Positions 5,928 to 25,718 of a DNA stretch of 42,089 nt are shown here, piece after piece; positions within the stretch are counted from its first letter, which is position 1, and the number at the start of each line of letters is the position of its first letter. The stretch lies in sequence record DRR723986_5222; one strand, written 5' to 3'. The notes below the pieces were generated by a model. It was not told the origin of the DNA and made no database searches. It saw only the letters and a list, made by a program, of their open reading frames with translations. The position numbers and the translations under genes were made by a program.

Positions 5928-5952
5928 GCGTTGCCCCCTTTTGGATTGTGGG

Positions 5953-5981: not shown

Positions 5982-5988
5982 ACAGGTC

Positions 5989-7002: not shown

Positions 7003-7138
7003 GATGTCCTCCCTCGCTCAGTGCCCCTGTAAACAGGAGCAGATGCATCTTGTGATGCATGTCGAAACTGCGCCCCGGTGCTAAGCACGCCCTGTTCAAG
7101 GCCCCGACCAGCAGCAGGTTGGCGATACGTTACGGCAG

Positions 7139-7157
7139 GAAATATTACGTTTGCAAT
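7139..7157. promoter_or_regulatory. Candidate RpiR operator overlapping a possible dctP promoter
   Basis: GAAATATTACGTTTGCAAT is 16/19 identical to 4004-4022. On the minus strand, TTGCAA (7156-7151), an 18-bp spacer and TAACGT (7132-7127) resemble a sigma70 promoter. Confidence 0.5.
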
Positions 7158-7217
7158 CTATTTATTATTTTTTGTTACATTTGATAAATCTCAAGCAACA
7201 ACATCACTTCGAACACA

Positions 7218-7257
7218 CACAAAAGGCAGCGCCGGTTGCCCGGTGCTGCCTTTTGTG
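7218..7257. terminator. Rho-independent terminator downstream of the FAD oxidoreductase genes
   Basis: CACAAAAGGCAGCGCCGG-ttgc-CCGGTGCTGCCTTTTGTG, a long stem flanked by A and T runs. Confidence 0.75.
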
Positions 7258-7301
7258 ATTCATGAAACAAGATCAGAAGGTTGCGACTTAATCGGCGGCC
7301 T

Positions 7302-8697: not shown

Positions 8698-10071
8698 TCA
8701 GTGGTGCCGCCCGCCTTGGCGTTCCAACTCAGCCTGAATCAATAATGGGTCAATATCTTTCAGCGCCTTGTTCTGCTGTTTGATCGACAGCGCAGCAGCG
8801 ATACCTGCAGCCTGCCCCGTGACCGCACAGCACGCCATGTTGCGCGTTGCGGCATGGCTATCGCGATCCCCACCCGTTGCACGGCCTGCAACCAACAGGT
8901 TTTCAACCTTTTTCGGCAACAGATTGCGATACGGAATCTGGAAATAGCGCCCCGTCGTGGGCAAGATCAGAATACCGTACCCATCAATGAATTCCGGGAA
9001 AATGCCAACTGAATCCTCGAACCTGGCCTGTTCACGCACATCATGGCTGGTCATGTTGTACTCACAATCCACTTTGCGCGTATCGCGCACGCCCAGCGAC
9101 ATACCGAAATTGCGCAGGCGAATGCCTTCGCAACCCGGCGTGTAGCGGCGCAATGCTTCGATGGCGAGCATCGACTGACGGCGGCCTTCGATCTCGTATT
9201 TGGTCAGACTGTCGGGGTCCGTGCCGTCGCAATCATCCATATGGATGAGGTTCATATACGTCAGCTCACCCGTGTCGTGCACCGCGCCCCATGTGCCTGC
9301 GATCGTGTTCAGATGTGGCGGGATCAACCCGTCCTTGATCGCCTGCTCAAACGGCTTTTTCAAAAATGGAGAAAACATCTCGTCTTCTTTGCCAGTGGTC
9401 TCGATATTCCATTCACCACCGCCGCCCCAATCGGCATAGGTCTGCGGATCGTTCTTGATACCATCCATGAACTTTTGCTTGTCCACGCCCGCAACGTGGA
9501 ACATGACCGAGGCCGCCATCATCTGTTCCAGCGGAGTCTTATAGGTTGGCGCCCCTGCCCGTTCGATGACATCCGCATCCCCGGTTGCATCAATCACCCG
9601 CTTCGCCAAGATCGCTTCGCGTCCGGCTTTGGATTCCGTAATAATGCCTATGATGCCGTTGCCCTCCATGATCGGGGCGACGAACTGACGGTGCAGCATG
9701 GGGCGGATATTGGGTTCATCTGCAACCATCTTATCGGCCACCAGCTTGAACCCTTCGCTGTCGATCTCATAGCTGAGCGATTGGCTTTCGGGAACGGCAG
9801 CGCCCATTTCTTTGGCGCGCTCTTCGAACTCACGCGCGATGCCGTTGGATTCCACGGTCTCTTCGTGGCGATACCAATGCATCCCCTCGACCCCGACCAC
9901 GGTCAGGTTGCCGCCAAAGCAGCCAAAGCGTTCGACCAGAGTCACCTCGACCCCAGCCCGCGCGGCAGCTAGGGCAGCGGGCAAACCGCCGGGGCCCGAT
10001 CCAATCACCAACACATCGGTTTCATGAATGACGTCAATTTCGCGCGCCGGCTCCTGAATTCGTTTTGCCAT
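8698..10071 (-). CDS. FAD-dependent oxidoreductase (FAD_oxidored-type family)
   Basis: Motifs VLVIGSGPGGLPAALAAAR, IDATGDAD, QIPYRNLLPK..NLLVAGR and GQAAGIAAA. Start set at ATG 10071, downstream of GGGGGA. Confidence 0.88.
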   Translation of the reverse strand: MAKRIQEPAREIDVIHETDVLVIGSGPGGLPAALAAARAGVEVTLVERFGCFGGNLTVVGVEGMHWYRHEETVESNGIAREFEERAKEMGAAVPESQSLSYEIDSEGFKLVADKMVADEPNIRPMLHRQFVAPIMEGNGIIGIITESKAGREAILAKRVIDATGDADVIERAGAPTYKTPLEQMMAASVMFHVAGVDKQKFMDGIKNDPQTYADWGGGGEWNIETTGKEDEMFSPFLKKPFEQAIKDGLIPPHLNTIAGTWGAVHDTGELTYMNLIHMDDCDGTDPDSLTKYEIEGRRQSMLAIEALRRYTPGCEGIRLRNFGMSLGVRDTRKVDCEYNMTSHDVREQARFEDSVGIFPEFIDGYGILILPTTGRYFQIPYRNLLPKKVENLLVAGRATGGDRDSHAATRNMACCAVTGQAAGIAAALSIKQQNKALKDIDPLLIQAELERQGGRHH

Positions 10072-10215
10072 GGGTCCCCCAATCTCTGTTCTCGGCAGCA
10101 TTCTCCAAAGGGTTTGGACTTGGCAAGTCCTTGTATGAGGGAATGCCTGTTTTCCGGTCAAAGCTCGGTTTTCTGAGCCCGATTGCCCCAAAACCTGCCG
10201 TCATAAAAAATTCAT

Positions 10216-10230
10216 ATGGATTTTTGTGGC
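10216..10230 (+). promoter_or_regulatory. Candidate DeoR-family operator, copy 1
   Basis: ATGGATTTTTGTGGC, starting 48 bp upstream of the DeoR start. It matches the reverse complement of 21521-21535 at 13/15 positions. Confidence 0.4.
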
Positions 10231-10263
10231 TTTTCGATTGGTTTTGTGTGTTTCATTTCGGTC

Positions 10264-11058
10264 ATGGAAACTGAGACCGATAAAATCCCACATCGGGGGC
10301 ATGAGCTGCTCAACGTTTTGGCACGTTTAGGAGGCTCTGCGCGCAATGCTCAGATCGCTCAGGTTATGAACGTTTCCGAGGAAACCGTGCGCCGCCTGAT
10401 CAAAGGCCTGGCCCAGGCCGGCAAGGTTGAGCGGGTGCACGGCGGAACCTATTTGCGCGGCTCTGCGGACACGCCAATGTATTCCGGTGCACTGGAACAA
10501 AATGCTGTTGAAAAGACCCAGATCGCGCGCGCGGTGTTAGATCACGTGACTGATGGCATGACCATCTTCATCAATGTCGGATCTACAACTACCTATGTTG
10601 CAGAGCAATTAAGGGACCGTAAGTCACTGATTGTGGTGACAAATTCCATCACTGCTGTTGCAGCACTGGCCGATCACAACGACAACCGTGTATTTATGGC
10701 CGGGGGTGAAATCCAACCTGCAGAACGCGGCACCTTTGGCAGCGCCACAGAAGAGTTCGCCGCCCAGTTCAGCTATGATCTGGTGATCTTTGGGTCGGAT
10801 GCCATTTCCGCCAATCAGGGGTTTCTGGCCTCCAATCCGGCCGAGGCATCGTTGACCCGTGTGATCATCAAACAATCTCAGCTCGCATTGGTCGCAGCGG
10901 ACTGTCGCAAGTTCAACAGACGGGCGCCGATTGTAGCCTGCCCCCCAGACAAAGTTACACACTTAATTACAGATGCCCCCCCCGATCCGGCCTTACAACT
11001 GGCCCTGAATGACTGGGGGGTCGAGGTTCACATCGCGCAAAAACTGTCAAAAAAATGA
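10264..11058 (+). CDS. DeoR/GlpR family transcriptional regulator
   Basis: HTH motif VSEETVRRLI..L...VERVHGG and sensor-domain motifs IFINVGSTT, VVTNS and ADCRKF. Start set at ATG 10264. Confidence 0.9.
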   Translation: METETDKIPHRGHELLNVLARLGGSARNAQIAQVMNVSEETVRRLIKGLAQAGKVERVHGGTYLRGSADTPMYSGALEQNAVEKTQIARAVLDHVTDGMTIFINVGSTTTYVAEQLRDRKSLIVVTNSITAVAALADHNDNRVFMAGGEIQPAERGTFGSATEEFAAQFSYDLVIFGSDAISANQGFLASNPAEASLTRVIIKQSQLALVAADCRKFNRRAPIVACPPDKVTHLITDAPPDPALQLALNDWGVEVHIAQKLSKK

Positions 11059-11127
11059 AACATAAGAACAATAAGCGGGGCAAATCGCGGGTCAACCGTT
11101 CCCCAATTTAATCCAACTGGAGGTAAC

Positions 11128-13170
11128 ATGAAAAAGATTCTTCTTTCCGGCGTCGCCGCTATCGCCCTACCGGGCATGGCCGCAGCTGCCAGCTGTCCGG
11201 CGGTCACCGTCGCAGATGCCATGGGCGTCGCCGCAGGCGCATTCCCACAGCAGTACGACCTGACTGAATTCCAAGGCGCCGCATCCTGCGAGATGACGTT
11301 TGCCGAAAACCCGGCCATCGGCGATCTGAACGCGCGTATTCGTGGCAACGGCGATCTGCCAGCTCTCGCCGACCGTTTGCCATCCGAGCCCCTGGTGATG
11401 GCACCCTATGCAGCAACCGGCACCTATGGCGGTCAATTGGATGTCCTGTCCAACGCCACTGAATCCGGCACCTCGGATTTCCTGTCCGTGCGTCACGTCA
11501 ACCTGTTCCGCTATTCCGATGATCTGCAGACTGTTGTGCCCAACGTCTCTAAATCCTGGACTTGGAACGACGACTTCACCGAGCTGACGGTATCGCTGCG
11601 TGCGGGCCACAAATGGTCGGATGGTGAACCCTTCACCGCAGCTGATGTGGTGTTCTGGTACGACAACCTGATGATGGACACCAATGTCATCGCCGAACCC
11701 AAAGGCTATGCATTGGCCGGTGGCGAACCGATGAAGGTTGAAGCCATTGACGACACCACCGTCAAATTCACGCTGGCCGCGCCTAAGCCGGGCCTGATCG
11801 AGACCTTCTCGTTCACCTACGTGCAGCCTTATCAGCCCAAGCACTTCTTTGAGCAGTTCCACCCGGCCCTGAACGATCAAGCCGACGCCAACGCCAAGGC
11901 GCTCGGATATGAAGGTGGCTATGATCTGATCAAAGCCTATTACGGCAATTCAGACTGGATGGACACGCCGTCACCGATGCTGACTGCGGGTGACAAACTG
12001 GCTGGTCTGCCCAAAGACACCATGCCCACGCTGGAAAGCCACATCTTGGTGAAAGAAACCACCGAGGGCCGTCACTACGTCGCGAACCCTTACTTCTTCC
12101 AGGTGGACACAGCTGGCAATCAGTTGCCTTATATCTCGGACATGGACGAGACCTATGTGGGCGACGAAGAAGTCCGCACTCTGAAGCTGTTGAATGGCGA
12201 AGTAGATTACAAATCACAGGCCGTGAACCTGACATCAGCCCCCGTGCTGCTAGAGGGTCAGGAAAAGGGCAACTATACGCTGGACGTTAAGCCCGGCATC
12301 GCCAGCCCGACCATCGCGTTCAACGTGACCCACGAAAACGAAGCCCGCCGCGCCATCTTTGGCGATGTCCGGTTCCGCACCGCGATGTCCGTCGCAATGA
12401 ACCGCGCCGAGCTGAACGAAGTGACCGCCTTTGGTTTGGGCACACCCACCCAGTACATCGGTTTTTCACCGCGTCCTGATTTCATCGATGCAAAATGGTC
12501 CGAGCACGAAGCCAGTTTCGACCCGGCCCGCGCCAACGCGCTGCTGGATGAAATGGGCTTGATGGACAAAGACGGTGACGGCGCACGTGACATGCCCGAT
12601 GGATCGCCTTTGGTTCTGGATTGGCAGTTCTCGACACAGGCGAGCCCCGCCCAGTTTGTTGAACTGATCGCCCAGAACTGGACCGACGTGGGTATCAAGA
12701 CGTCGATCAAAGAAGTCACATCAGATGAGTTCCGCGCGGCGCAGTCTGCCAACCAGCTGGACATCACCATGTGGGGCAAAGGTCAGCCTGCCGGGTCTAT
12801 CCTTGGCGATGACGAAACATGGATCCCACCGTTTGATGGCTATTTTGACGTGCGCACTGGGATGCTGTGGGCTGAGTTCATCAGCTCGGATGGCGCCAAT
12901 GGCGTTCAGCCTCCGGAATGGGTTGGCAGCCTGAAAGCTGAGCTGGACACCTACCAGTCTTCGGCTCCGGGTACGGATGCGTCGATTTCAGCGGCACAGA
13001 AAATGGTTGAAATCATGACTGGTGAAATGCTGTTCATCGGGACCGTGAATGCGCCTGCGCCGATCTATCACTCGAACAATCTGAACAACTTTGTCGAGTT
13101 CAAGACGCAGTCGTATGAGTTCTACCGGACCTACCCTTATCGCCCAACCCAGTGGTTCCTGAGCGAGTAA
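11128..13170 (+). CDS. ABC transporter substrate-binding protein, family 5 (long AgpA/OppA-like type)
   Basis: Signal peptide and GGAGG RBS. Motifs LPALADRLPSEPLV, LRAGHKWSDGEPFTAADVVF, NPYFFQVDTAGNQLPYI and a DKDGDG loop. Confidence 0.92.
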   Translation: MKKILLSGVAAIALPGMAAAASCPAVTVADAMGVAAGAFPQQYDLTEFQGAASCEMTFAENPAIGDLNARIRGNGDLPALADRLPSEPLVMAPYAATGTYGGQLDVLSNATESGTSDFLSVRHVNLFRYSDDLQTVVPNVSKSWTWNDDFTELTVSLRAGHKWSDGEPFTAADVVFWYDNLMMDTNVIAEPKGYALAGGEPMKVEAIDDTTVKFTLAAPKPGLIETFSFTYVQPYQPKHFFEQFHPALNDQADANAKALGYEGGYDLIKAYYGNSDWMDTPSPMLTAGDKLAGLPKDTMPTLESHILVKETTEGRHYVANPYFFQVDTAGNQLPYISDMDETYVGDEEVRTLKLLNGEVDYKSQAVNLTSAPVLLEGQEKGNYTLDVKPGIASPTIAFNVTHENEARRAIFGDVRFRTAMSVAMNRAELNEVTAFGLGTPTQYIGFSPRPDFIDAKWSEHEASFDPARANALLDEMGLMDKDGDGARDMPDGSPLVLDWQFSTQASPAQFVELIAQNWTDVGIKTSIKEVTSDEFRAAQSANQLDITMWGKGQPAGSILGDDETWIPPFDGYFDVRTGMLWAEFISSDGANGVQPPEWVGSLKAELDTYQSSAPGTDASISAAQKMVEIMTGEMLFIGTVNAPAPIYHSNNLNNFVEFKTQSYEFYRTYPYRPTQWFLSE

Positions 13171-13197
13171 TCCGGTCCTCATGGACCTAACAACACG

Positions 13198-13229
13198 AGG
13201 TCGGGCATTCCAACGCGGGTGCCCGACCT
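13198..13229 (+). other. Intercistronic stem-loop after the binding-protein gene
   Basis: AGGTCGGGCA...TGCCCGACCT, a 10-bp perfect stem that can be extended with G-U pairs. Confidence 0.6.
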
Positions 13230-13249
13230 TAGCGACCTAGGGGGTAGCC

Positions 13250-14254
13250 ATGCTACAATTTGCACGGTTCGCTGCGACGCGCGCGGCGATGGCACTGATC
13301 ACACTGACGATCGTGTCCTTGGTGGTGTTCACCTTGATGGAACTGGTGCCCGGCGATTGCGCCGAGCGGTACCTGTCCTACAAGAACACCCAAGGATCGG
13401 CGATCACGCTGGCGGATATCGACGCTGAGCGCGCCCGGCTCGGGCTGGACCGTCCATTCCTGACCCGCTGGGTCAGCTGGCTGACCGGCGCGTTTCAGGG
13501 CGATTTTGGCAGCAGCTGCATCCTGCGGGTAGATATTGCTCAGCTTCTGGGCGCGAAATTCTGGATTTCCCTCGCAATCTGTTTGGGTGCCCTGACACTG
13601 GCCTATGCCATTGCAATCCCTGTTGGAATCATCTCGGCCGCGTCCCGCAATGCCGCGATGAACAACGTTCTGCGACTGGTCAGCTACCTTGGTCTGGCCA
13701 TGCCGAATTTCCTGTTGGCGCTGATGATCATGCTGGTTTCGACCGTCTATTTCGGCGAAACTTTGACCGGCCTATTTTCCCCCGAATACAAAGATGCGCC
13801 GTGGTCCTGGGCCAAATTGGGCGATCTGTTGAAACACGCCTGGCTTCCAATCTTTATCCTTGGCTGGTCTGCGACTGCTTTTGCTTTGCAAACCGTGCGG
13901 GCCCTAATGTCCGATGAGATTGGCAAGCTATACGTCACTGCCGCCGCAGCGCGGGGCATTCATGGCACCCGCTTGTTGTGGCGCTATCCGGCGCGGCACG
14001 CGCTGGGGCCAATCGTCAACAGCCTTGGCTTTGACTTGAATCGGATCTTTAACGAACTGCCCATCGTGGCGTTGATCTTGACGTTGACAGAGGCCGGGTC
14101 GCTGCTGCTCGAAGCCCTGGCACGCTCCAATGACCAACAACTGGCCGGCGCGATCATCTTTCTGCTCACGGCATCCATCGTGACGCTGAACTTTTTCACC
14201 GACATTCTGCTGGCGGTCATCGACCCCCGTGTCCGCAAAAGCATCCTGAGGTAG
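13250..14254 (+). CDS. ABC transporter permease (OppB/DppB-like)
   Basis: Motifs LVPGD, LGLDRP, GDFG.S, AMPNFLLAL and C-terminal DILLAVIDPRVR. Confidence 0.92.
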   Translation: MLQFARFAATRAAMALITLTIVSLVVFTLMELVPGDCAERYLSYKNTQGSAITLADIDAERARLGLDRPFLTRWVSWLTGAFQGDFGSSCILRVDIAQLLGAKFWISLAICLGALTLAYAIAIPVGIISAASRNAAMNNVLRLVSYLGLAMPNFLLALMIMLVSTVYFGETLTGLFSPEYKDAPWSWAKLGDLLKHAWLPIFILGWSATAFALQTVRALMSDEIGKLYVTAAAARGIHGTRLLWRYPARHALGPIVNSLGFDLNRIFNELPIVALILTLTEAGSLLLEALARSNDQQLAGAIIFLLTASIVTLNFFTDILLAVIDPRVRKSILR

Positions 14255-14258
14255 GCCG

Positions 14259-15389
14259 ATGAGTGTGACGACACAAAACCAAAAGGCCAAAGAGGCCTAT
14301 TTCACCGCCTCGCAGGGTCAGTTGATCTGGGCACGTTTCAAGAAACAAAAGGCTGCTATGGTCGGGGCCGTGGTGCTGGTGGTATTGATCCTGTCGGGGA
14401 TTTTCGCACCCTTCCTGTCGCCCTATGACCCCACTGTGGCGGGACGAGACAAAGGATACCTGAACGGCGCGCCACAGATCCCGAAATTCTGCGATGACAA
14501 TGGCTGCTCAGTGCGGCCGTTCCTCTACACCGTGACTCGCGAGCGGTCGCTCGCGACCAATTTCCGCTGGGTGGAAAAGATCAACACCGACGAACGCCGC
14601 TATGTGCAGTTCTTTGTACAGGGCGACAAATACAAGCTGTTTGGCTTTATTCCCGGCTCTGTCCATCTTTTTGGCATGGATAATGGATATGTCCATTTGT
14701 TCGGCACCGACAGCGCAGGCAAAGACATCTTTAGCCGGACCTTGCACGCGATCCTGACCTCGCTTCAGGTGGGCACGATGGGGGTTGTGATCTCGTTTGT
14801 GCTGGCGCTCGTGATTGGGGGGATATCCGGGTATTATGGCGGTTGGCTGGACAGTGTGATCCAGATGGTTACAGATGCCATCCGTACCGTACCCGCAATC
14901 CCATTGTTCATGGCAATCGCGGCCTTTATCCCGCCGGAATGGACGGCAGAAACCCGGTTCTTTTTCATCTCAATGATCCTAGGCCTGATCGGCTGGCCCA
15001 CTTTGGCGCGACGGGTCCGCACCCATTTGCTGACCGAACGCAATCAGGAATACGTGCTGGCGGCACAGCTGTGCGGGGCCTCGCCCAGCCACGTCATCCG
15101 ACGCCACCTGCTGCCCAGTTTCACCAGCTACATCATCGTCGATCTGGTCATTTCCTTCCCTTACATGGTGCTGAGTGAAACGGCCCTGTCGTTCATTGGT
15201 TTGGGCCTCAAGGATCCGGTGAACAGCCTGGGCGTGATGTTGCAGAACGTAACCAAGGCGGATGTTTTGCTGAACTATCAATGGTATTTCATCCCGGTGA
15301 TTTTCTTCATCGCGCTGGTGATGGCATTTGTGTTTGTGGGCGATGGCCTGCGCGATGCGGCTGACCCCTATTCGGAGGCCAACAAATGA
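14259..15389 (+). CDS. ABC transporter permease (OppC/DppC-like)
   Basis: Motifs HLFGTDSAGKDIFSR, EAA-loop EYVLAAQLCGA, ETALSFIGLG and GDGLRDAADP. Confidence 0.92.
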   Translation: MSVTTQNQKAKEAYFTASQGQLIWARFKKQKAAMVGAVVLVVLILSGIFAPFLSPYDPTVAGRDKGYLNGAPQIPKFCDDNGCSVRPFLYTVTRERSLATNFRWVEKINTDERRYVQFFVQGDKYKLFGFIPGSVHLFGMDNGYVHLFGTDSAGKDIFSRTLHAILTSLQVGTMGVVISFVLALVIGGISGYYGGWLDSVIQMVTDAIRTVPAIPLFMAIAAFIPPEWTAETRFFFISMILGLIGWPTLARRVRTHLLTERNQEYVLAAQLCGASPSHVIRRHLLPSFTSYIIVDLVISFPYMVLSETALSFIGLGLKDPVNSLGVMLQNVTKADVLLNYQWYFIPVIFFIALVMAFVFVGDGLRDAADPYSEANK

Positions 15390-16381
15390 GCCTGATCGAC
15401 GTCAAAAACCTGACCCTGCAATTTGATACCGACGAGGGGCGCATTACTGCGGTCGACAACGTGTCATTCTCGCTCGCACCAGGCGAAGTCATGGGGTTGG
15501 TCGGAGAATCCGGTTCCGGCAAATCGGTAACCGCTAAAGCGTTGATGAAACTGAACGCGCGCAACGGACACTATTCCAACGACAGCCAGATTACCCTGCA
15601 TCTGGACAGTGGTCCGGTCGATGTCATGTCACTGAAACGCCCACGCGATATGGCCGTCATTCGTGGCGGCGCGATCAGCATGATTTTTCAGGAACCCATG
15701 GCCAGCTTTGCCCCTGCCATGACCGTGGGCAGCCAGATGGTTGAACAGCTGTTGATCCATTCCAACATGAACAAACGACAAGCCAAGGAGCTGTCGATTG
15801 AGATGTTGGATCGTGTTGGTATTTCCGACGCATCTACCCGGTTCAATCAGTATGCGTTCGAGATGTCCGGCGGTATGCGCCAGCGCGCTATGATCGCGAT
15901 GGCCTTGTCCACAAAGCCCAAGCTGTTGATCGCAGATGAACCCACCACGGCGCTGGATGTGACCATTCAGGCGCAGGTCATCGATCTGATGAAGGATCTG
16001 GTAGATGAATTCAAAATGGGCATCATCTTTATCACTCACGATCTGGGCGTTGTTGCCCAAACCGCCGACAAAGTCGCCGTGATGTATCTGGGCCGGATGA
16101 TCGAACAGGGCCCTGTGCGCGAGGTGATCCGCAATCCGCGCCATCCCTATACCCAAGGCTTGATTGACGCATTGCCGAAACTTGACGATCTGGGCGCACC
16201 TCTGCGGGCCATTCCCGGTGATATTCCGTCACCGCTGGAACGCCCCTCGGGCTGTGTGTTTCATACTCGCTGTTCGCAGATCATCGGCGATATCTGTAAA
16301 ACCCACCTGCCCGCTTGGGCAGATACCGGCGCCGATCATCGCACCGCCTGCCATCTCTGTCACCAAGGAGCCAGCGCATGA
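15386..16381 (+). CDS. ABC transporter ATP-binding protein (OppD-like)
   Basis: Walker A GESGSGKS, signature [21 protein letters not shown] and the C-terminal Cys motif GCVFHTRC. Confidence 0.95.
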
Positions 16382-17385
16382 GCGATCCGCTTTTGATCCA
16401 GACCAAGGATCTGTCTGTCACCTTTTCCATCGGCAATGGCGTGTTCAAGAAACAGCAGCTCAAAGCGGTGGATGGAATCTCCATCGACATCCCCAAAGGG
16501 TCATTCTTTGGCGTTGTTGGGGAATCCGGCTCAGGCAAAACCACGCTGGGCCGTGCACTGTTGAATGCGGTTCCGATCTCGGACGGGCACGCCACCTATG
16601 ACGATGGCGAAGTTACGTATGATTTGGCCGATCTCGATGGCGCCGTGCTCAAGGACTATCGCAAACGCGCGCAACTGATTTTTCAGGACCCCTACGCCGC
16701 ACTCAGCCCACGCATGACGGTGCGCGATATCATCGCCGAACCGCTCGAGGTGATGGGGCTGACTGCAAACCGCGAGGAAACCGATGCCCGCGTACGTGAA
16801 ATCGCGGCCAAATGTCGGTTGAATCTGGAACACCTGCGCCGCTTTCCCCATGCATTTTCCGGCGGTCAGCGCCAACGCATTTCCATCGCACGCGCGCTGG
16901 TATCTGGACCTCAGTTCATTGTCGCAGATGAATCCGTCGCGGCGTTGGATGTGTCCATTCAAGCCGACATTCTGAACCTGCTCAAATCCATCCAACAAGA
17001 GATGGGCCTGACGTTTCTGTTCATCAGCCATGACCTGTCTGTGGTCGCCCACACATGTGACCATGTGGCGGTGATGTATCTGGGGCGTATCGTCGAAAGC
17101 GCCCCAACCCGGCAGTTGTTCAAGAATGCGCGTCACCCCTATACCAAGGCGCTGTTCTCGGCGATCCCCTCATTGGATCCGGACGATCGTGGATCAGCGC
17201 AGAAACTGGTTGGGGAAATCCCATCGCCCACCAACCAGCCGACCGGGTGCAAATTCCACACCCGCTGCCCCTATGTGACGGACCTGTGCAAACAACAAGA
17301 ACCCCCATTGGTCACCTGCGAAGAGGGCCACGCCGTATCCTGCCACCGGTGGGAAGAACTGCAAGAAGGTATCACAACCGCCTGA
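16378..17385 (+). CDS. ABC transporter ATP-binding protein (OppF-like)
   Basis: Motifs GESGSGKT, FSGGQRQR, ADESVAALD and GCKFHTRCP. Start set at the ATGA overlap, 16378. Confidence 0.95.
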   Translation: MSDPLLIQTKDLSVTFSIGNGVFKKQQLKAVDGISIDIPKGSFFGVVGESGSGKTTLGRALLNAVPISDGHATYDDGEVTYDLADLDGAVLKDYRKRAQLIFQDPYAALSPRMTVRDIIAEPLEVMGLTANREETDARVREIAAKCRLNLEHLRRFPHAFSGGQRQRISIARALVSGPQFIVADESVAALDVSIQADILNLLKSIQQEMGLTFLFISHDLSVVAHTCDHVAVMYLGRIVESAPTRQLFKNARHPYTKALFSAIPSLDPDDRGSAQKLVGEIPSPTNQPTGCKFHTRCPYVTDLCKQQEPPLVTCEEGHAVSCHRWEELQEGITTA

Positions 17386-17392
17386 ATTAGGC

Positions 17393-18232
17393 TCAGGCGC
17401 TGGTTCCGATCAGCGCCACGCCCATCGCCATCAGCACGGCCGCGCCAAGGCGGCGTTTCCAGTTGCCTTCGCGCAGGAACACGAACCCGATCAATGCGGC
17501 AAAGATCACCGATGTTTCGCGCAAGGCTGAAACCGCCCCCAGCGGCGCAAAGTTTTTGGCATATAGCACCAGACCATAGGCGGTCATCGAAACCAAGCCA
17601 CCCGCGATGCCCAAGGCCCAAACCCGCAGCGGTAGCGCCGCAAGTGTTGCGCGTTTGCGGAGCCCAATGAAGCCCGCGATAAAGATATGCAAGAATGCGC
17701 CCCATGCCCAATAAGACAACGTATTGCCAGACAACCGTACCCCGATCCCATCCACCACGGAATAGATCGAGATACAGAAACCCGTGCCGACAGCAAACCC
17801 AAGTGCGGCCTTACCCACGCCAGAGCGCAGCACTTTCCAACTGCTCAGCTGAATACCTAACGCAATAACGCCGATCCCGATCCACGCTTGCGCAGGCAGT
17901 ACCTCGCCCAACAGGATGAGCGCCCACAGCGACACCAACGCCGGAACAATGCCGCGCGCGATCGGATACACCACGCTCAGATCGCCGTGCTGATAGGCCT
18001 TTCCCAGCATGAAGAAATATCCAAAATGCACCACCGTCGACAGCAGGATATAGACAAAGCTTTCAGCGCTTGGCAGCGGTAGCAGCATCACCATGACCGT
18101 CGCAGGCAACACATGACCAAAAGCCACCAGACCCAGCGTCGTGGTCCGGTCCACGGCGGTTTTCACAATAGCGTTCCAGACCGCATGCAACACAGCGGCG
18201 GACAAGATAATGGCGATGACAAAGGGCGACAT
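17393..18232 (-). CDS. DMT/EamA family transporter
   Basis: About 10 TM segments. Motifs AVLHAVWN, GDLSVVYPIARG and VSALRETSVIFA. Confidence 0.9.
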   Translation of the reverse strand: MSPFVIAIILSAAVLHAVWNAIVKTAVDRTTTLGLVAFGHVLPATVMVMLLPLPSAESFVYILLSTVVHFGYFFMLGKAYQHGDLSVVYPIARGIVPALVSLWALILLGEVLPAQAWIGIGVIALGIQLSSWKVLRSGVGKAALGFAVGTGFCISIYSVVDGIGVRLSGNTLSYWAWGAFLHIFIAGFIGLRKRATLAALPLRVWALGIAGGLVSMTAYGLVLYAKNFAPLGAVSALRETSVIFAALIGFVFLREGNWKRRLGAAVLMAMGVALIGTSA

Positions 18233-18236
18233 ATAG

Positions 18237-19919
18237 TCAGTCCTGCGGTTCGGGGGTGGGCATGTCCTCGATCAATCGGGTCTCTAGCAACTGCCCATTC
18301 TGATACAGGATCGGCGTCGCAACCGAAGCAATATGGCTGTTGAAATCCCGAAACGCCCGCAGGGTTTCCAGATGGATATCGCTTGTTTCAAAACTTTGCA
18401 CCTGACCGGCCTGCAGACGGCGAAAATGACGCTTTCGGCTGTTGCGCTCGGCGCGTTTAACCTCGGTCTTTTCACCGTTCAACAGGCGGGCGCTTTCCAA
18501 ATCATCCGAGATCAGCACATTCGAAGCCAAGCGCAGGTTGGCCAGAATGGTCTCGTGCATGTCCTGCAATTCGCTCCAACCCTCTTTCGAGAACTGTTTG
18601 CCAGTCCGCCGCAGGTCCCCGGCTAATACTGTCAAACGCTTGGCCACCACATCGCCAGCGGTTTCCAAACGGACGGCATATTCCATCATGTCCCGCGCAG
18701 TACCCGCGTTTTCTTTGCCCAACTCTTCGACCGGAAGAGCCGCCACAAAAGCCCTGACCCCGGATAGGCACTCGTTAACCTCGTGGTCTACGGCCTGCAC
18801 CGCCCGGATCTGATCCTTTTCGCCGGTTTTGTACAGCTTGAGCGTGGGGCGGAACATCGCTTCGACCAGGTCGGTCATACGCAGCAGCTCGCGCTTGAGG
18901 CTGAAAATCGCTTGGGAGGGCGACCCGACATCTTGTGGGTCCAATACGCTGGTTGGACGCGCCATCTGGTCAGCATCCACCGCCGGGGTCACGTCCGGCA
19001 ACAGACGCTCAAACGGACCACGCAGCGCTGAACAGAACGGTAAGGCCAAAACCAGCAACGACGCGTTGAACGCCAGATGCGCATTGACCAACATCTGCCC
19101 GCCGTAATCCGCACCCACAAGTCCAGCACCCAGAGCCGCGTTTACGGCAAACAAGGTGAAAACAGCCCATGTCCCGCGTAAAATAAGGTTGGCAACAGGA
19201 ATACGCCGCGCCGCGATATCCATCCCCCGTGTCAGCCAAACCGGGATAAAGGCACTGCCCATATTCGCTCCCAACACCAATGACAGCCCCGCCGCGAAAG
19301 GGATCGCGCCAATTTGCACCAGCGTCACGCACATCAAAATGGCCGCAACCGAGCTGTGCATCACAAAGGCCAGTGCAGCCCCAACGATAAACGCTGTGAT
19401 GTAATCGCGCGCCAGATATTCCGCGAGCGCAGGCAAAAAGGCACTGTCGCGGATTGGGTCCATCGCCTCGCGCAGGAACCGCAGCGAAATCAGGATAAAC
19501 GCAATCCCCATCAAGATCCGCCCCATCTGGCGTAGCTTTTTCTGCTCAGTCTTCACGAACAGCCAACCACCAACGGCAAGCAAAAGTGGCACCAACCAAT
19601 CCAGCTTGAAAGACAGGATCTGAATGATCAGAGCAGACCCCAGATCGCCACCCAGCACAATCGCCAGACCGGCGCCAAACCCCAACATGCCACTGGCGGC
19701 AAACCCCGAGGTCAACAAGGCCACCGCAGCCGAGCTTTGCAACACCACTGCCATCACCAGCCCGGCAAGGCTGGATTGCAGCAGGTTGCTTTGGCCCGTC
19801 ATCACCCGCTGGAACGAGGCGCCGTAACTGCGCTCGATCCCGGTACGCACCATGCGCACAGCAAACAGCAGCAACATGGTTGCACCGGCGAGACTGATAA
19901 GAAAGCTGACAATGGCCAT
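18237..19919 (-). CDS. Na/Pi cotransporter family protein with C-terminal PhoU-like domain
   Basis: Hydrophobic N-terminal half with repeated LQSSAA / MHSSVAA and LGGDLG / LGANMG motifs. Helical soluble C-terminus (LETAGD, ETSDIHLETLR). Confidence 0.88.
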   Translation of the reverse strand: MAIVSFLISLAGATMLLLFAVRMVRTGIERSYGASFQRVMTGQSNLLQSSLAGLVMAVVLQSSAAVALLTSGFAASGMLGFGAGLAIVLGGDLGSALIIQILSFKLDWLVPLLLAVGGWLFVKTEQKKLRQMGRILMGIAFILISLRFLREAMDPIRDSAFLPALAEYLARDYITAFIVGAALAFVMHSSVAAILMCVTLVQIGAIPFAAGLSLVLGANMGSAFIPVWLTRGMDIAARRIPVANLILRGTWAVFTLFAVNAALGAGLVGADYGGQMLVNAHLAFNASLLVLALPFCSALRGPFERLLPDVTPAVDADQMARPTSVLDPQDVGSPSQAIFSLKRELLRMTDLVEAMFRPTLKLYKTGEKDQIRAVQAVDHEVNECLSGVRAFVAALPVEELGKENAGTARDMMEYAVRLETAGDVVAKRLTVLAGDLRRTGKQFSKEGWSELQDMHETILANLRLASNVLISDDLESARLLNGEKTEVKRAERNSRKRHFRRLQAGQVQSFETSDIHLETLRAFRDFNSHIASVATPILYQNGQLLETRLIEDMPTPEPQD

Positions 19920-19923
19920 CGCG

Positions 19924-20697
19924 TTATCCGTTCACCAACGCCAACAGAGCGGCGTGCAACTCTGGCGTCGCCGCCGAAATCACGCGCCCATCAGATCTCA
20001 GAGTCAGAGGCTGGCCCTGCCAATCCGTCATCATGCCACCTGCGGCCTCCACCACCGCAGAGACCGGCAAATAGTCATAGGGCTGCAAATCATAATCGAC
20101 CACTGCGTCCACGTGACCAGCCGCCAACAAGGCGTGCGGATAACAATCATAGGCGAACCGACGCGTTTGGCCCGCCTTGGTGAGACGATCAAAGGTATGT
20201 GGGTGATCACGATAGATCTTTTCGCCTTCGTTCACATAAAGGATCGCCTGATCCAGGTCTGCCTGCTGTGAGCTTTGGATGGGCGTACCATTCAATGTCG
20301 CCCCTGTCCCTTTGGCCCCGATGAACACTTCACGCAGCGCTGGCATTCCAATCACGCCCAGTTGGGGTTCCCCATCCTTGAGCAGCCCCAACAACATGCC
20401 AAACAACGGATGCCCGGACAGAAACGATCGCGTGCCATCAATCGGATCAATGATCCACATGTGCGCACGATCCGCGCCCTCGATCCCGTGTTCTTCGCCG
20501 AAAATCCCGTGATCAGGGAAATGTTCGGCCAAATAGGATCGGATCAGGGCCTCGACCCCTTTGTCGGCCTGAGTGACTGGGCTTTCGTCTTCTTTAAACT
20601 CGATCCCTAGGCTTCCGCGAAAATAACCGCGCGCGGCCTCTCCGGCAAAATCGGCAATCTTGGCCGCGTGGGTCGTATACTCAATCGTGGTCAGCAT
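19924..20697 (-). CDS. Inositol monophosphatase family phosphatase (HisN-like subfamily)
   Basis: Motifs SPVTQAD, GEE, WIIDPIDGTRSF and PYDYLPVSAVVEAAGG. Start set at ATG 20697, downstream of GGAG. Confidence 0.88.
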   Translation of the reverse strand: MLTTIEYTTHAAKIADFAGEAARGYFRGSLGIEFKEDESPVTQADKGVEALIRSYLAEHFPDHGIFGEEHGIEGADRAHMWIIDPIDGTRSFLSGHPLFGMLLGLLKDGEPQLGVIGMPALREVFIGAKGTGATLNGTPIQSSQQADLDQAILYVNEGEKIYRDHPHTFDRLTKAGQTRRFAYDCYPHALLAAGHVDAVVDYDLQPYDYLPVSAVVEAAGGMMTDWQGQPLTLRSDGRVISAATPELHAALLALVNG

Positions 20698-21484
20698 CGC
20701 TGTCCGCTCCACTCGATAAATGTGTGACAATCCCCCAGTCGAGCAAGGCAGACGCCAGTTTTGCTCCGGGGGGTTGATCCGTTACCACCATATCCACCTG
20801 CCGCGGTTCCGGGCCTTGGTGGGGGGCGGTTTCGCTGAATTTGTGATGATCCACGGCCATTAGAACGCGTTCTGCGCTGTCGGCGATCACCCCTGCGAGA
20901 TTGGCTTCGGTCTCGTTTAGGTACAAAAACCCGCGCTTGGCGCTCAGCGCATCAACACTCAGGACCGCCATATCAAACGCAAACCGCCGGGCTTGCCGTT
21001 CGGTGACAAAGCCAAAGGTGCCGCGCTCATCACCCTGCATTTCCCCACCCAACAGGTGCACTTTGTTGCCATTGTGATTGACCAGTGCCTGCGCCACACC
21101 AATCGAATTGGTCGCAACCGTCAGACCCGAACGTTGGCGCAACTCTTCGGCCACAAAGGCCGTCGTGGTTCCGACATCCAGAAACAGGGTCATGCCATCA
21201 TGAACCTGATCCGCGACCCCCGCACCAATGGCCTGTTTTTCATCGGAATGGTGCGAAATGCGGCGGAAAAAGCTGGGATCACTCTGTGACCCGGTCAAAT
21301 AGGCCCCACCGTGCACCCGTTCGACTGCACCGGATTTTGACAGGGATTTGATAGTGCGACGCACGGTTTCCTCGGACACATCCAGCGCTTTGGCCAATTC
21401 CGCCCCGCGCGCCGATCCACCCAGCCGACGCAACGCGTCGAGCAGTTCCAGTTCCCGATGCGAATGGGTCGAGGATTGGGCCAC
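20681..21484 (-). CDS. DeoR/GlpR family transcriptional regulator (paralog of 10264-11058)
   Basis: HTH motif LGGSARGAELAKALDVSEETVRRTI..VERVHGG, plus LFLDVGTTT and VATNS. GTG start at 21484, downstream of GGAGG. Confidence 0.9.
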   Translation of the reverse strand: MAQSSTHSHRELELLDALRRLGGSARGAELAKALDVSEETVRRTIKSLSKSGAVERVHGGAYLTGSQSDPSFFRRISHHSDEKQAIGAGVADQVHDGMTLFLDVGTTTAFVAEELRQRSGLTVATNSIGVAQALVNHNGNKVHLLGGEMQGDERGTFGFVTERQARRFAFDMAVLSVDALSAKRGFLYLNETEANLAGVIADSAERVLMAVDHHKFSETAPHQGPEPRQVDMVVTDQPPGAKLASALLDWGIVTHLSSGADSDADHD

Positions 21485-21520
21485 GTTTGGGCCTCCGGTC
21501 AATTTGAATTCCCTCGTGAT

Positions 21521-21556
21521 GCCACAAAACTCCACAATTATTCAACCAAATTGTGG
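21521..21556. promoter_or_regulatory. Candidate DeoR-family operator, copy 2, in the divergent deoR/hydrolase promoter region
   Basis: CCACAA direct repeats at 21522 and 21532 (10-bp period) and the inverted repeat CCACAATT-N9-AATTGTGG (21532-21556). Confidence 0.5.
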
Positions 21557-21674
21557 GATATTCACACACGCTTGACCGCGCCACATGGAAAATTTGCGAA
21601 AAACCCTCTTTCCAGTGATGGAAAATGCCGGTTATGTGGGTTTGACCAACGACGCCCGCACATCGGAGCCCCTT

Positions 21675-23204
21675 ATGCGTGAGCCCAAGAATGTTCTCTT
21701 TGTCATAATCGACCAGCTGCGCGCTGATTGCGTCTTTGGGGCGCTAGCGGGTCATGTGGACCTGCCCAACCTGCGCGCCTTTATGGATGAGGCGGTGACG
21801 TTCAAACGCCACTTCTCAGCTGTGAACCCCTGTGGTCCCTCACGCGCGTCCTTGCTGACCGGGCAATATGCGATGAACCATCGGTCCGTGCGCAATGGCA
21901 CACCGCTGCGCCACGATACCCCGTCTGTTGCATCTGAAATGCGCAAGGCTGGATATGTTCCGATGCTGTTTGGCTATACCGACACTTCGCAAGACCCGCG
22001 CGCGTATCACCCCAGCGACCCTGCGGTGCACACCTACGAATACCCAATGGTCGGCTTTCACGAGATGGTGGAAATGCGGTTCGAGATGTCTTACCCGTGG
22101 CGCTCGCATCTGCTGAACAACGGCTACAATTTCGACAGTTATGAACAGGTCTATCAACCTGTCTCGCCCACTGGCGAGGCGCCCCGTGTGAATGACCCCG
22201 CGCTCTACCGGGCCGACGACAGCGACACCGCCTTTCTGACGGATCAATTTCTGGCCACTATGCCAGCCTATGCCGATCAGAACTGGTTCGCGCATCTGAC
22301 CTATATCCGGCCACACCCGCCGATGGTTGCGCCTGCGCCCTACAACGACATGTATGACCCCGGTCAGATCCCCCTGCCCGCCCGGCTTGCGGATGCAGAC
22401 GCGGAAACCGCCATCCATCCGTTCTGTGGCCCGGCGCAGGCCAACGCGACCCCTGCGCGCTTTGTGGTTGGGTTTCCGGATCTGGAACCAACGGATGAAA
22501 ACGTGCAGACCCTGCGCGCCATCTATTTCGGCCTCGCGACCGAGGTTGATCTGCATATCGGACGGGTCATCCAATTCTTGAAAGACAGTGGCCAATACGA
22601 CGACACGCTGGTGGTGATCACCGCCGATCACGGCGAAATGCTAGGCGACCGCCACTCCTGGGGTAAGATGTCCGTCTATGACGCCGCCTATCACACGCCG
22701 CTGATCATTCGTGCGCCGGGACTGTCCGAAGGCGTCGAGGTCACCGTGCCGACGGAATCAATCGACATCTCCCCAACCATTCTGGACTGGGTCGGGCAGG
22801 AAATTCCGAATTCCATGGATGGCCGGTCATTGATGCCGTTCTTGCAAGGTGAAACGCCACACGACTGGCGCGACTATTCCTTTTCCGAGCTGGACTTTTC
22901 AGACCCTGAAACGCCGTCGTTGTGGGAAAAGACCCTTGGCACAGGGCCTAGCGACTCATCGCTCGGCATCCTGCGCGACGATCGTTTTACGTTGGTTGAA
23001 TATGCGGCTGACCTAGCGCCAATCCTGTTTGACCATGAAAACGCAGGTGAATTCGCCAACGTCGCGGATCAGCCCGCGTATCAGGCGGATCTGAACCGCC
23101 TGACCCGGCAGATGCTGCGCCACAGGATGCGGAACATGGATCACACCCTGTCACTGGATTCGATCACCAATGACGGACCACGCAAACAGAAGCGGTATCC
23201 GTGA
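21675..23204 (+). CDS. Phosphonate monoester hydrolase/phosphodiesterase-like enzyme (alkaline phosphatase/sulfatase superfamily)
   Basis: Motifs NVLFVIIDQLRAD, formylglycine signature CGPSRASLLTG, MNHRSVRN, RPHPP and ADHGEMLGD. The GYTDTSQDPR segment resembles PMH/PehA enzymes as I recall them. No signal peptide. Start at ATG 21675, downstream of GGAG. Confidence 0.8.
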   Translation: MREPKNVLFVIIDQLRADCVFGALAGHVDLPNLRAFMDEAVTFKRHFSAVNPCGPSRASLLTGQYAMNHRSVRNGTPLRHDTPSVASEMRKAGYVPMLFGYTDTSQDPRAYHPSDPAVHTYEYPMVGFHEMVEMRFEMSYPWRSHLLNNGYNFDSYEQVYQPVSPTGEAPRVNDPALYRADDSDTAFLTDQFLATMPAYADQNWFAHLTYIRPHPPMVAPAPYNDMYDPGQIPLPARLADADAETAIHPFCGPAQANATPARFVVGFPDLEPTDENVQTLRAIYFGLATEVDLHIGRVIQFLKDSGQYDDTLVVITADHGEMLGDRHSWGKMSVYDAAYHTPLIIRAPGLSEGVEVTVPTESIDISPTILDWVGQEIPNSMDGRSLMPFLQGETPHDWRDYSFSELDFSDPETPSLWEKTLGTGPSDSSLGILRDDRFTLVEYAADLAPILFDHENAGEFANVADQPAYQADLNRLTRQMLRHRMRNMDHTLSLDSITNDGPRKQKRYP

Positions 23205-24668
23205 TCACCGCATCACAAACGGATCAGGGATCGGATCGTCCGAGGTCTTGAGCCAGACCGCCTTGACCTTGGTATAATCCAGCGCCGCCTGCATGCCGCC
23301 TTCGCGGCCATGACCTGACAACCCGTGCCCGCCAAAGGGCGCGATGGGAGAGACTGCGCGATAGGTGTTGACCCAGACGATGCCGGCGCGAATGCCCCGG
23401 ATCATCCGATGCGCGCGGGTCAGGCTGCTGGTGAATACGCCAGAAGCCAGACCAAAGGTTGTGTTATTGGCGATTTCCAACGCTTCTTCTTCGGTATCAA
23501 ACGACAGGACCGACAGTACCGGGCCGAAGAACTCGTTGGTGATGCAATCCGCTTGCGGCGCGTCTGAACAGTCGATGATCGTGGGCGGGAAATAGAACCC
23601 ATCACCCGCAATCGCCTGACCGCCAGTGACCACGCGCGCGCCCTGTTTTTCAGACACTTCGATCAGTGCCAGCGCATTGTCGCGTTGACGCAAGGTGCAC
23701 AACGGGCCGACCTCGGTCGCCATGTCAGTTGGATCCCCGATCACCACGGCTTCAGCCTTGGCCTTGAGCTTAGTCAGAAACTTGTCCTTGATCTTGTTCG
23801 AAATCACCAACCGCGATCCGGCAACACAGCTCTGCCCAGTCGCCGCAAAGATGCCTGAGACCTGCGCGTTGACCGCGCTGTCTATATCTGCGTCGTCAAA
23901 TACGATGAACGGGGATTTGCCGCCCAGCTCAAGCGAGGTTGAAGCGAGATTTTCGGCCGAATTTCGTACGATATGGCGTGCAGTCTCTGGTCCGCCGGTA
24001 AAAGCCACGTGCGCCACCTTTGGGTGGCTGGTCAGGGTCGCGCCCGCTTCGGGACCACCAGTGATGACGTTCAGCACCCCCTTTGGGAACCCGGCCTGAT
24101 CAAAAATCCGGGCAAATTCCAACATTGGCGCGGGACCTTCTTCGGATGCTTTCAGCACCACTGTACAACCAGCGGCCAATGCGGGTCCGATCTTTACAGC
24201 CGACAGGAACAACTGCGAATTCCACGGCACAATTGCAGCGACAACTCCGATGGGCTCGCGGCGCAACCAGACCTCCATATCCGGTTTGTCGATAGGCAGA
24301 TGCGCGCCTTCGATCTTATCCGCCAGCCCGGCGTAATAGCGATAGTACTCCGCAACATAAGCGATCTGCGCGCTGGTTTCGCGAATAATCTTGCCGGTGT
24401 CACGGGTTTCCAGCTCGGCCAGACGAGCGGCGTTTTCTGCCACCAGATCGGCCAGACGATGCAACAACTTGCCGCGCTGGGTCGCTGTCATGAGCGCCCA
24501 TTCAGACCCTAAAAAGGCCGTTTCAGCAGCTTTGACCGCGCGGTTCACATCTGCGGCCTGCGCCTCGGGCATGCTGGCCCACGCCGCACCCGTGGCCGGA
24601 TCGATGCTGTGAAGCTGCGCTGATCCGTCGTCAAACGCGCCGTCGATATACTGCTGAAACTGTTGCAT
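23205..24668 (-). CDS. tgnC: Aldehyde dehydrogenase, TgnC-like
   Basis: Motifs VPWNSQ, FTGG, LELGGKSP, GQSCVAG and EFFGPVL. The tgnC assignment comes from gene context next to the tgnB-like gene. Confidence 0.75.
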   Translation of the reverse strand: MQQFQQYIDGAFDDGSAQLHSIDPATGAAWASMPEAQAADVNRAVKAAETAFLGSEWALMTATQRGKLLHRLADLVAENAARLAELETRDTGKIIRETSAQIAYVAEYYRYYAGLADKIEGAHLPIDKPDMEVWLRREPIGVVAAIVPWNSQLFLSAVKIGPALAAGCTVVLKASEEGPAPMLEFARIFDQAGFPKGVLNVITGGPEAGATLTSHPKVAHVAFTGGPETARHIVRNSAENLASTSLELGGKSPFIVFDDADIDSAVNAQVSGIFAATGQSCVAGSRLVISNKIKDKFLTKLKAKAEAVVIGDPTDMATEVGPLCTLRQRDNALALIEVSEKQGARVVTGGQAIAGDGFYFPPTIIDCSDAPQADCITNEFFGPVLSVLSFDTEEEALEIANNTTFGLASGVFTSSLTRAHRMIRGIRAGIVWVNTYRAVSPIAPFGGHGLSGHGREGGMQAALDYTKVKAVWLKTSDDPIPDPFVMR

Positions 24669-24677
24669 TTCTAATCC

Positions 24678-25715: not shown

Positions 25716-25718
25716 GCC

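Follow-up and report, generated by a model that had tools for sequence, protein, structure and literature searches.

A phosphonate monoester hydrolase co-conserved with a family-5 importer in a gene cluster of a marine bacterium, and its candidate natural substrates

What does a phosphonate monoester hydrolase (PMH) hydrolyze in the cell that makes it? The question is raised by a gene cluster of a marine bacterium in a 42,089-nucleotide stretch of sequence record DRR723986_5222 (the window), where a PMH gene lies beside genes for a family-5 ATP-binding cassette (ABC) importer, two DeoR-family regulators, an IMPase-family phosphatase, a Na/Pi cotransporter family protein, and an EamA-family membrane protein. 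PMHs are textbook examples of catalytic promiscuity, and the cluster offers a testable natural job for a family so far known mainly from its promiscuity in the test tube. Here we describe the gene families of the cluster, the identity of its hydrolase as a PMH, and the co-conservation of the PMH with the importer and with genes for 2-aminoethylphosphonate (AEP) degradation, all of which are observed in the sequences compared. With moderate confidence, we propose that the cluster imports esters of 2-aminoethyl-phosph(on)ates, that the PMH cleaves them, and that a HisN-like phosphatase dephosphorylates the phosphate form. The conserved importer-hydrolase pair narrows the candidate substrates to a short list, and the idea of the initial annotation, that the cluster could serve as a pointer to the natural PMH substrate, holds.

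The hydrolase and its conserved partners

The hydrolase gene (21585 to 23204, plus strand) is predicted to encode a cytoplasmic phosphonate monoester hydrolase/phosphodiesterase of the D type. Met31 (nucleotide 21675) is its likely start, because all orthologues align from about residue 30. In a phmmer search, the protein matched Protein Data Bank (PDB) entry 4UPK, "phosphonate monoester hydrolase" (bit score, 879), and it is 73% identical to SpPMH, a protein from the megaplasmid of Ruegeria (Silicibacter) pomeroyi DSS-3 that matches the 4UPK alignment rows. It contains the formylglycine precursor motif C-x-P-x-R as CGPSR, aligned to Cys57 of RlPMH, and its G-Y-T-D-T stretch aligns with G-Y105-T-T107-T of RlPMH, which places Tyr and Asp at the two PMH-defining positions and makes it a D-type PMH; SpPMH shares both the CGPSR motif and these two residues. 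According to a passage of PMC5488252, Asp or Thr marks PMHs and His marks arylsulfatases at the "HisA" position, and Lys-A is replaced by Tyr in PMHs. A Gln adjoining the metal-binding Asp is common to the window protein and the PMH branch made up of SpPMH (4UPK), RlPMH (2VQR), and BcPMH/PehA (2W8S). The Pfam family Sulfatase is matched at 156 bits, and the score against the PehA equivalog model NF045661 (428.3 bits versus a cut-off of 900) makes the protein a PehA relative and not an equivalog. The hydrolase had been described as lacking a signal peptide, and its translation, judged by eye, indeed has no hydrophobic signal-like stretch at the N terminus. On these scores and residues, the predicted enzyme is a true PMH.

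We searched a family sample of 401 genomes for the PMH and for the periplasmic solute-binding protein (SBP) of the importer, a family-5 (cluster C) protein of 680 amino acids encoded at 11128 to 13170 on the plus strand (PF00496; bit score, 183). SBP orthologues were defined by at least 45% amino acid identity, which kept 69 genomes from 89 hits, with a clear gap down to at most 37%; for the PMH, 73 genomes were kept from 74 hits, a single hit of 206 bits being dropped. Both genes are present in 55 genomes, and in 42 they share a contig and are no more than 25 kb apart (odds ratio of co-occurrence, 68; Fisher p, 1.7e-38, in a test that ignores shared ancestry). A tblastn survey of about 10 kb on each side of the PMH in all 73 genomes, with thresholds of our own choosing, found at least one importer gene in 42 of the 73 loci, AEP genes (PhnW, PhnX, PhnY, or PhnA) in 26, and importer and AEP genes together in 19. 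The other partners that recur beside the PMH are a DeoR like the second regulator of the window (16 loci), the Na/Pi protein (15 loci, 5 of them also with AEP genes), EamA (13), the IMPase (9), a set of GS-like, ALDH, and Fe-ADH genes (8), and a PotD-like importer (6).

A second sample was drawn from 153 confirmed PMH relatives on one-genome-per-species contigs; the best 80 were searched by tblastn, and the sample is thus biased to close relatives. The SBP (at least 55% identity) lies in the locus of 26 of these 80, and three short contigs with the ATPases only bring the count to 29, in many layouts and many genera; the IMPase (at least 50% identical) was found in 13, the Na/Pi protein in 17, and EamA in 22. 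In 32 Ruegeria loci of this sample, the PMH has Mla-type genes and a two-component system as its neighbors instead of any partner genes. Copies of the first permease that are 73 to 100% identical adjoin PMH relatives, and two more distant PMHs, RlPMH on pRL9 and a PehA of Pseudoroseomonas, have in each case a family-5 importer immediately after them. Because the arrangement of importer and hydrolase is co-conserved across many rearranged layouts, it is more than chance. The initial annotation had taken two operons and the hydrolase for one system and had proposed neighborhood conservation as a check; the joint presence of PMH and SBP in 55 of 401 genomes supports the former, and the latter is borne out by the co-conservation of the SBP with the PMH and by the recurrence of IMPase, Na/Pi, DeoR, and EamA genes beside it.

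Representative PhnW, PhnX, PhnA, and PhnY proteins score above curated cut-offs, and their genes are arranged with those of the PMH and importer in several ways (loci compared here are numbered with the prefix L). Runs on a single strand include SBP-permease-permease-ATPase-PhnW-PhnX-PMH (L189) and PhnW-PhnX-PMH-SBP-permease-permease-ATPase-ATPase (L190), with similar runs in L181, L187, and L194. In many loci a LysR regulator is placed between PhnW-PhnA-PhnY and the PMH and importer genes, L170 has the order PhnW-PhnA-PhnY-EamA-DeoR-Na/Pi, and in L151 and L152 the IMPase gene is divergent from the PMH within a cluster of PhnWAY and importer genes. PhnW was found above its cut-off in 75 of the 401 genomes, together with the PMH in 51, within 25 kb of it in 28, and clustered with both PMH and SBP in 24. 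In a quick PMH tree rooted on RlPMH, contexts with importer and AEP genes stand on deep branches, and the window clade (22 rows; SH-aLRT, 98) is nested within. An adjacency of pmh to phnW-phnX and phnWYA in three isolates is also remarked on in a passage of PMC13608971.

In L129 and L144, and likewise in L036, L039, L052, and L076, the IMPase and Na/Pi genes are accompanied by the GS-like/ADH/ALDH set. Such a set is consistent with an amino alcohol as the product; for ethanolamine, a gamma-glutamylethanolamide route has been described (PMC6529630, in part). With PhnW/X/A/Y, the AEP-type LysR, the GS-like/ADH/ALDH set, and PotD-like importers as their neighbors, the orthologue neighborhoods point to esters of AEP and of amino-alcohol phosphates as candidate substrates.

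Two further kinds of neighbor were seen. A DAO-GcvT fusion (dimethylglycine-dehydrogenase-like) and a MttB-like methyltransferase follow the PMH in L177 (the same locus as L107), and such genes also stand beside the SBP in L090; these neighbors hint at N-methylated amine head groups. A PotD/PotABC-like importer takes the place of the family-5 importer beside the PMH in L124, L129, L130, L135, L137, and L146 (also in L024, L032, L040, L045, and L080), and its PotABC-like ATPase is nearest to a putative 2-AEP ABC ATPase (322 bits versus a cut-off of 458).

The best solved relatives of the SBP are SPH1118 (7VER; bit score, 236) and 5IPW (bit score, 216). The basic cleft residues of SPH1118 named in a passage of PMC9314435 are Arg57, Arg294, Arg438, Arg466, and Arg496, plus Trp594; in the phmmer alignment, mapped by hand, these become Leu119, Gln364, Gln504, Ser532, Glu563, and Tyr663 of the SBP. 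Binding of pectin oligosaccharides in the manner of SPH1118 was considered and rejected: the ligand arginines are replaced, and the ligand is therefore not predicted to be a pectin oligosaccharide. The positions aligned with the SPH1118 ligand contacts are the same whether the SBP orthologue comes from an AEP context (20 sequences) or from another context (18 sequences), with T115, D279, Q364, Q504, and Y663 invariant, and this sameness in AEP and non-AEP contexts suggests one ligand class common to the orthologues.

Predicted substrate and alternative explanations

Every substrate named below, as well as the directions of Na/Pi and EamA transport and the regulation, is a prediction from sequence. 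The substrate would be a small organophosphorus ester that is taken up intact and cut in the cytoplasm. Its phosphorus-bearing half would be AEP or phosphoethanolamine, esterified to an alcohol, and the alcohol half is possibly glycerol or else a sugar, derived from the head groups of lipids or glycans; AEP in nature is mostly bound in lipids and glycans. After uptake of the ester by the family-5 ABC system, the formylglycine enzyme PMH would cut the P-O bond to the alcohol. A phosphodiester would thereby yield an amino-alcohol phosphate, which would be dephosphorylated by the HisN-like IMPase (19924 to 20730, minus strand; PF00459, 190 bits). Histidinol phosphate is itself a substituted 2-aminoethyl phosphate. 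The IMPase scores 255.9 bits against the HisN model TIGR02067, under the NCBIfam cut-off of 275.15, and its 89 bits against inositol-1-monophosphatase are far under this HisN score; with the true HisN of the nearest genome it shares 38% identity, and it appears to be a paralogue of that protein. A phosphonate monoester would instead yield AEP, on which, in the lineage of the window, only C-P lyase could then act.

The phosphate released would be balanced or exported by the Na/Pi cotransporter family protein (18237 to 19919, minus strand; PF02690, 120 bits), which has a C-terminal PhoU domain (31 bits), and some small product would be moved by the EamA protein (17393 to 18232, minus strand; EamA, 55 bits), the last gene of its operon. 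Against TIGR03340, "phosphonate utilization associated," the latter scores 143.1 bits, under the cut-off of 288.15, and relatives 44 to 52% identical to it come after PhnW-PhnA-PhnY in L140, L152, L168, and L170. Both operons would be controlled by the DeoR proteins. Export of phosphate during AEP catabolism has been reported in a passage of PMC8316502.

A number of observations weigh against this proposal. The two genomes nearest to the window, G001 and G002 (those of loci L001 and L002), served as stand-ins for its own genome and contain the cluster at 92 to 100% protein identity. In neither were PhnW, PhnX, PhnA, or PhnY found above cut-off, which means that the window lineage has no directly encoded AEP branch. 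The regulators in the window are of the DeoR type, whereas AEP clusters use LysR. Fourteen of the 73 PMH loci (5 of them on short contigs) have none of the partner genes, the gene of the solved SpPMH is itself an orphan, and the IMPase stands beside the PMH in only 9 of 73 loci, its proposed substrate being drawn from its HisN likeness (38%) and its neighbors. In 14 genomes of the family sample the SBP was found and no PMH was; among the importer neighbors in 10 of these 14, where 40 of 146 open reading frames (ORFs), those flanking the importer, were scanned, no alternative hydrolase recurs. Finally, the identity thresholds were set by us, ORF calling was crude, and the statistics take no account of shared ancestry.

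NCBIfam scans of the window ORFs likewise detected no PhnW/X/A/Y and no AEP-type LysR. With these enzymes not found in the nearest genomes, the window has a version of the system that lacks the hydrolytic AEP branch. The nearest genomes do contain the C-P lyase protein PhnJ (bit score, 472) and a protein of the formylglycine-generating enzyme (FGE) family. Each also has a separate HisN gene elsewhere in the genome (282 bits; cut-off, 275.15), so that in these two genomes the IMPase of the cluster is not the sole HisN, a possibility named at the outset as one that would refute the proposed system.

The substrate first proposed for the cluster was an imported sugar or polyol phosphodiester (agrocinopine-like, a glycerophospho-sugar, or di-inositol phosphate), from which the PMH would make a sugar or polyol phosphate that is sensed by DeoR and dephosphorylated by the IMPase; we now regard it as rather unlikely. 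DeoR proteins usually sense sugar or polyol phosphates, and the cluster encodes two of them along with an enzyme of the IMPase family. Its five functional classes are all represented in the acc/arc region of pTiC58, with a GDPD for the PMH; the nearest solved relatives of the SBP include an oligosaccharide binder, SPH1118; and some PMH loci include an RpiR regulator that has a SIS domain. Nothing specific for such a substrate was found, however. No sugar kinase, isomerase, or glycosidase recurs beside the PMH in the loci of the two samples (153 in all), where the recurrent partners are instead AEP and amine genes; the IMPase is HisN-like (256 bits) rather than SuhB-like or AccG-like (inositol-1-monophosphatase, 89 bits); the sugar-binding arginines of SPH1118 are replaced; and identity to the acc proteins is just 21 to 41%. 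A sulfated sugar or osmolyte as the imported substrate, with the hydrolase acting as a sulfatase in vivo, is barely credible in our judgment. The Pfam Sulfatase match of 156 bits and a fold and formylglycine motif common to arylsulfatases would agree with it, as would the promiscuous sulfatase activity of PMHs (PMC5488252, in part), but the Lys and His that mark arylsulfatases are Tyr and Asp in the window PMH, the partner genes concern phosphate and phosphonate and not sulfur, and hydrolysis of choline sulfate by RlPMH was undetectable according to a passage of PMC5870055.

The presence of PhnJ in the nearest genomes, with no PhnW/X/A/Y above cut-off, would also agree with sugar esters of methylphosphonate or 2-hydroxyethylphosphonate from marine dissolved organic matter, the PMH freeing the phosphonate for C-P lyase and the IMPase and Na/Pi proteins serving general phosphate handling. 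An EamA-PMH-importer arrangement in Sulfitobacter loci and the postulate of Sosa et al. 2017 for a Sulfitobacter PMH homologue (PMC5649143, in part) speak in the same direction. We nevertheless consider this very unlikely: the partners of the PMH and importer are specific to AEP (PhnW and the AEP-type LysR) and not to C-P lyase, and the use of C-P lyase leaves the IMPase and the GS-like set unexplained. There is a similarly slim chance that the importer carries free 2-AEP or a small amine or peptide-like compound, and that it has no substrate in common with the PMH, which would be a promiscuous enzyme for clean-up and only loosely associated with it. Peptides and opines are common cargo of family-5 systems, the PMH gene is in some cases an orphan, and the sole transporter of several AEP operons is an importer of the window type, which would make it possibly a new AEP importer. 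Yet the pairing of PMH with importer (42 of 73 loci) is commoner than that of AEP genes with importer (19 of 73) and is kept where no AEP genes were found, the distant PMHs of Rhizobium and Pseudoroseomonas also stand directly before a different family-5 importer, and a cytoplasmic esterase requires an imported ester.

Esters of AEP and of amino-alcohol phosphates thus remain our preferred candidates, and a broader role can be sketched tentatively, at somewhat less than an even chance. The PMH and the family-5 ABC system would be the missing step that imports and frees esterified phosphonates and their phosphate look-alikes, the substrates would be phosphonolipid or phospholipid head groups or decorated glycans, and the window would show the system switched from the phosphonate branch of PhnW and its partners to one for phosphate, served by a phosphoethanolamine phosphatase derived from HisN and by an exporter of phosphate. 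If true, this would add a step to the marine phosphorus redox cycle, and the importer would be the first known phosphonate-ester transporter. Our literature search found no paper naming the natural PMH substrate or an importer of the window type; it returned only the remark in PMC13608971 noted above and the postulate, in a passage of PMC5649143, that a Sulfitobacter PMH homologue hydrolyzes phosphonate esters of dissolved organic matter. The words "monoester," "PehA," and "liberat" are absent from the text of a 2023 review (PMC10574752), as are "alkaline phosphatase," "peptide," and "unknown function" from one paper on AEP clusters (PMC8154272) and "alkaline phosphatase," "phosphonate ester," and "monoester" from another (PMC10590968); with such words absent, the step that frees AEP from esters goes unmentioned there.

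Gene layout, control regions, and surroundings

All 11 named genes of the cluster were present on the expected strands in the ORF list and in Pfam and NCBIfam scans of the window, so that the gene inventory of the initial annotation (a DeoR, a family-5 ABC importer, a convergent deoR-IMPase-Na/Pi-EamA operon, and a divergent PMH-like hydrolase) was borne out. The start then given, 10264, falls within the first regulator gene as called here, and the end, 23204, coincides with the stop of the PMH gene. The importer genes are preceded by that of the DeoR-family regulator DeoR1 (10216 to 11058, plus strand; DeoRC, 149 bits, with HTH_DeoR), which meets no NCBIfam equivalog cut-off (best, GlpR-like at 133 bits). 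The SBP gene is followed on the plus strand by permeases of the OppB/DppB type (13250 to 14254; BPD_transp_1 and BPD_transp_1_N) and the OppC/DppC type (14259 to 15389; BPD_transp_1 and OppC_N) and by ATPases of the OppD/DppD type (15386 to 16381) and the OppF/DppF type (16315 to 17385), both with ABC_tran and oligo_HPY. The true start of the OppF-type ATPase is probably about 60 nucleotides downstream of the ORF start, because its profile match begins at residue 20 to 27. On the minus strand, the second regulator, DeoR2 (20681 to 21535; DeoRC, 142 bits, with HTH_DeoR), is divergent from the PMH and probably starts about 20 codons inside its ORF; the intergenic gaps among the IMPase, Na/Pi, and EamA genes of its operon are 4 nucleotides.

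The spacer between DeoR2 and the PMH contains a candidate DeoR operator (21522 to 21556, no strand assigned), with three CCACAAWW sites in 35 nucleotides that include the inverted repeat CCACAATT-N9-AATTGTGG. Orthologous spacers between DeoR and PMH in other genera have tandem CCACA-type repeats, and sites related to CCACAAWW occur at 10186, 10222, and 11101. There is no enrichment across the window as a whole (CCACAAWW, 8 found versus 7.7 expected; CCMCAAWW, 17 versus 16.5), and the motif is post hoc, having been derived from the same control regions in which it clusters; the clustering of the sites in these regions suggests a regulatory lead. Between the SBP and the first permease gene, a G+C-rich inverted repeat (GGTCGGGCA ... 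TGCCCGACC; 13199 to 13230) may form a stem-loop that sets the ratio of SBP to permease expression.

Divergent from DeoR1 is a FAD-dependent oxidoreductase gene (8698 to 10191, minus strand; PF12831, 290 bits), a possible accessory gene. Copies 88 to 89% identical lie directly 3' of the PMH in L055 and L056, and with the gene in only 2 of the 73 PMH loci of the family sample the link is weak. Further upstream (2181 to 8636) are genes for a CN-hydrolase, an RpiR regulator, a TRAP transporter (DctPQM), and a DAO-family oxidase (7302 to 8636), the last with weak similarity to L-pipecolate oxidase and to the "putative aminophosphonate oxidoreductase" TIGR03329 (164 versus 633 bits). No close counterpart of this DAO gene was found beside the PMH in the relatives' PMH loci; RpiR and TRAP genes of another lineage (22 to 25% identity) are near the PMH in a few other loci.

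On the other side of the cluster (23205 to 28820) are genes for an ALDH, a luciferase-like monooxygenase, a flavin reductase, an alpha/beta hydrolase, a PF06684 "amino acid synthesis" protein, and a GntR regulator; the ALDH is nearest to betaine and aminobutyraldehyde dehydrogenases, under their cut-offs, and the GntR is weakly phnR-like (107 versus 271 bits). The ALDH, monooxygenase, and flavin reductase (23205 to 26672) were considered as members of the system and rejected, being kept only in two near-identical relatives; for the whole stretch from 23205 to 28820, too, conservation next to the PMH is limited to these two. ParB/RepB-like (30112 to 31221, minus strand), RepA/ParA-like (31172 to 32761, minus strand), and replication initiator-like (33009 to 34403, plus strand) genes follow, with a drop in G+C at about 32 to 34 kb that is consistent with a replication region; given these replication and partition genes, the cluster lies on a plasmid or chromid. 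The genes from 34393 to 41476 encode a LacI-type regulator, a TctA/TctB/TctC tripartite transporter, the acylating sulfoacetaldehyde dehydrogenase SauS (685 bits, above the cut-off of 600), and an acyl-CoA ligase, and look like a sulfoacetate-type degradation cluster with a TTT transporter.

Comparison with known systems

The SpPMH gene, for all the likeness of its product, stands as an orphan, with Crp, HTH, and R-body genes around it, whereas the window PMH has an importer, a phosphatase, and a Pi transporter beside it. RlPMH, which is only 40% identical to the window PMH, resembles it in context, with a family-5 ABC importer directly after it on pRL9, although the binding protein of that importer is only 23% identical to the SBP of the window. 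The Ugp and GlpQ-UgpQ systems likewise pair an ABC importer for a phosphodiester or monoester with a diesterase, but their binding protein is of family 1 and their diesterase is a GDPD.

The acc/arc region of pTiC58 is closer in design. A Na/Pi cotransporter gene (155270 to 156922; L195) and a sucrose phosphorylase gene are divergent from AccR, after which come AccA-E, a GDPD protein, and a member of the IMPase family. The Na/Pi gene of the arc operon was absent from the comparison made in the initial annotation; since it is encoded there, acc/arc shares all five functional classes with the window cluster (DeoR regulator, family-5 ABC importer, cytoplasmic diesterase, IMPase-family phosphatase, and Na/Pi protein), in a similar divergent and convergent layout and with the same logic of diester import followed by intracellular cleavage. 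The systems differ in their diesterase, which is a GDPD-type AccF there and a PMH in the window (the scanned window ORFs had no match to the GDPD family), and in their likely substrates. The earlier description of the cluster as acc-like thus stands for layout and logic, while the proteins are similar only at the family level (AccR, 29% identity to DeoR1; AccA, 21%; AccG, 37% over 148 amino acids; Na/Pi, 33%; ATPases, 39 to 41%). As judged from these identities, the acc and window systems are analogous, not orthologous.

The hydrolytic AEP clusters (LysR-PhnW-PhnX and LysR-PhnW-PhnA-PhnY) differ from the window in having PhnW/X/A/Y and the AEP-type LysR, in place of which the window has a HisN-like IMPase beside its PMH. 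Their likeness lies in the genes themselves: they contain orthologues of the window importer (SBP, 47 to 65% identity) and of the PMH (40 to 66%), in some cases as one operon, and relatives of the EamA, DeoR, and Na/Pi proteins are found there too (L163 and L170).

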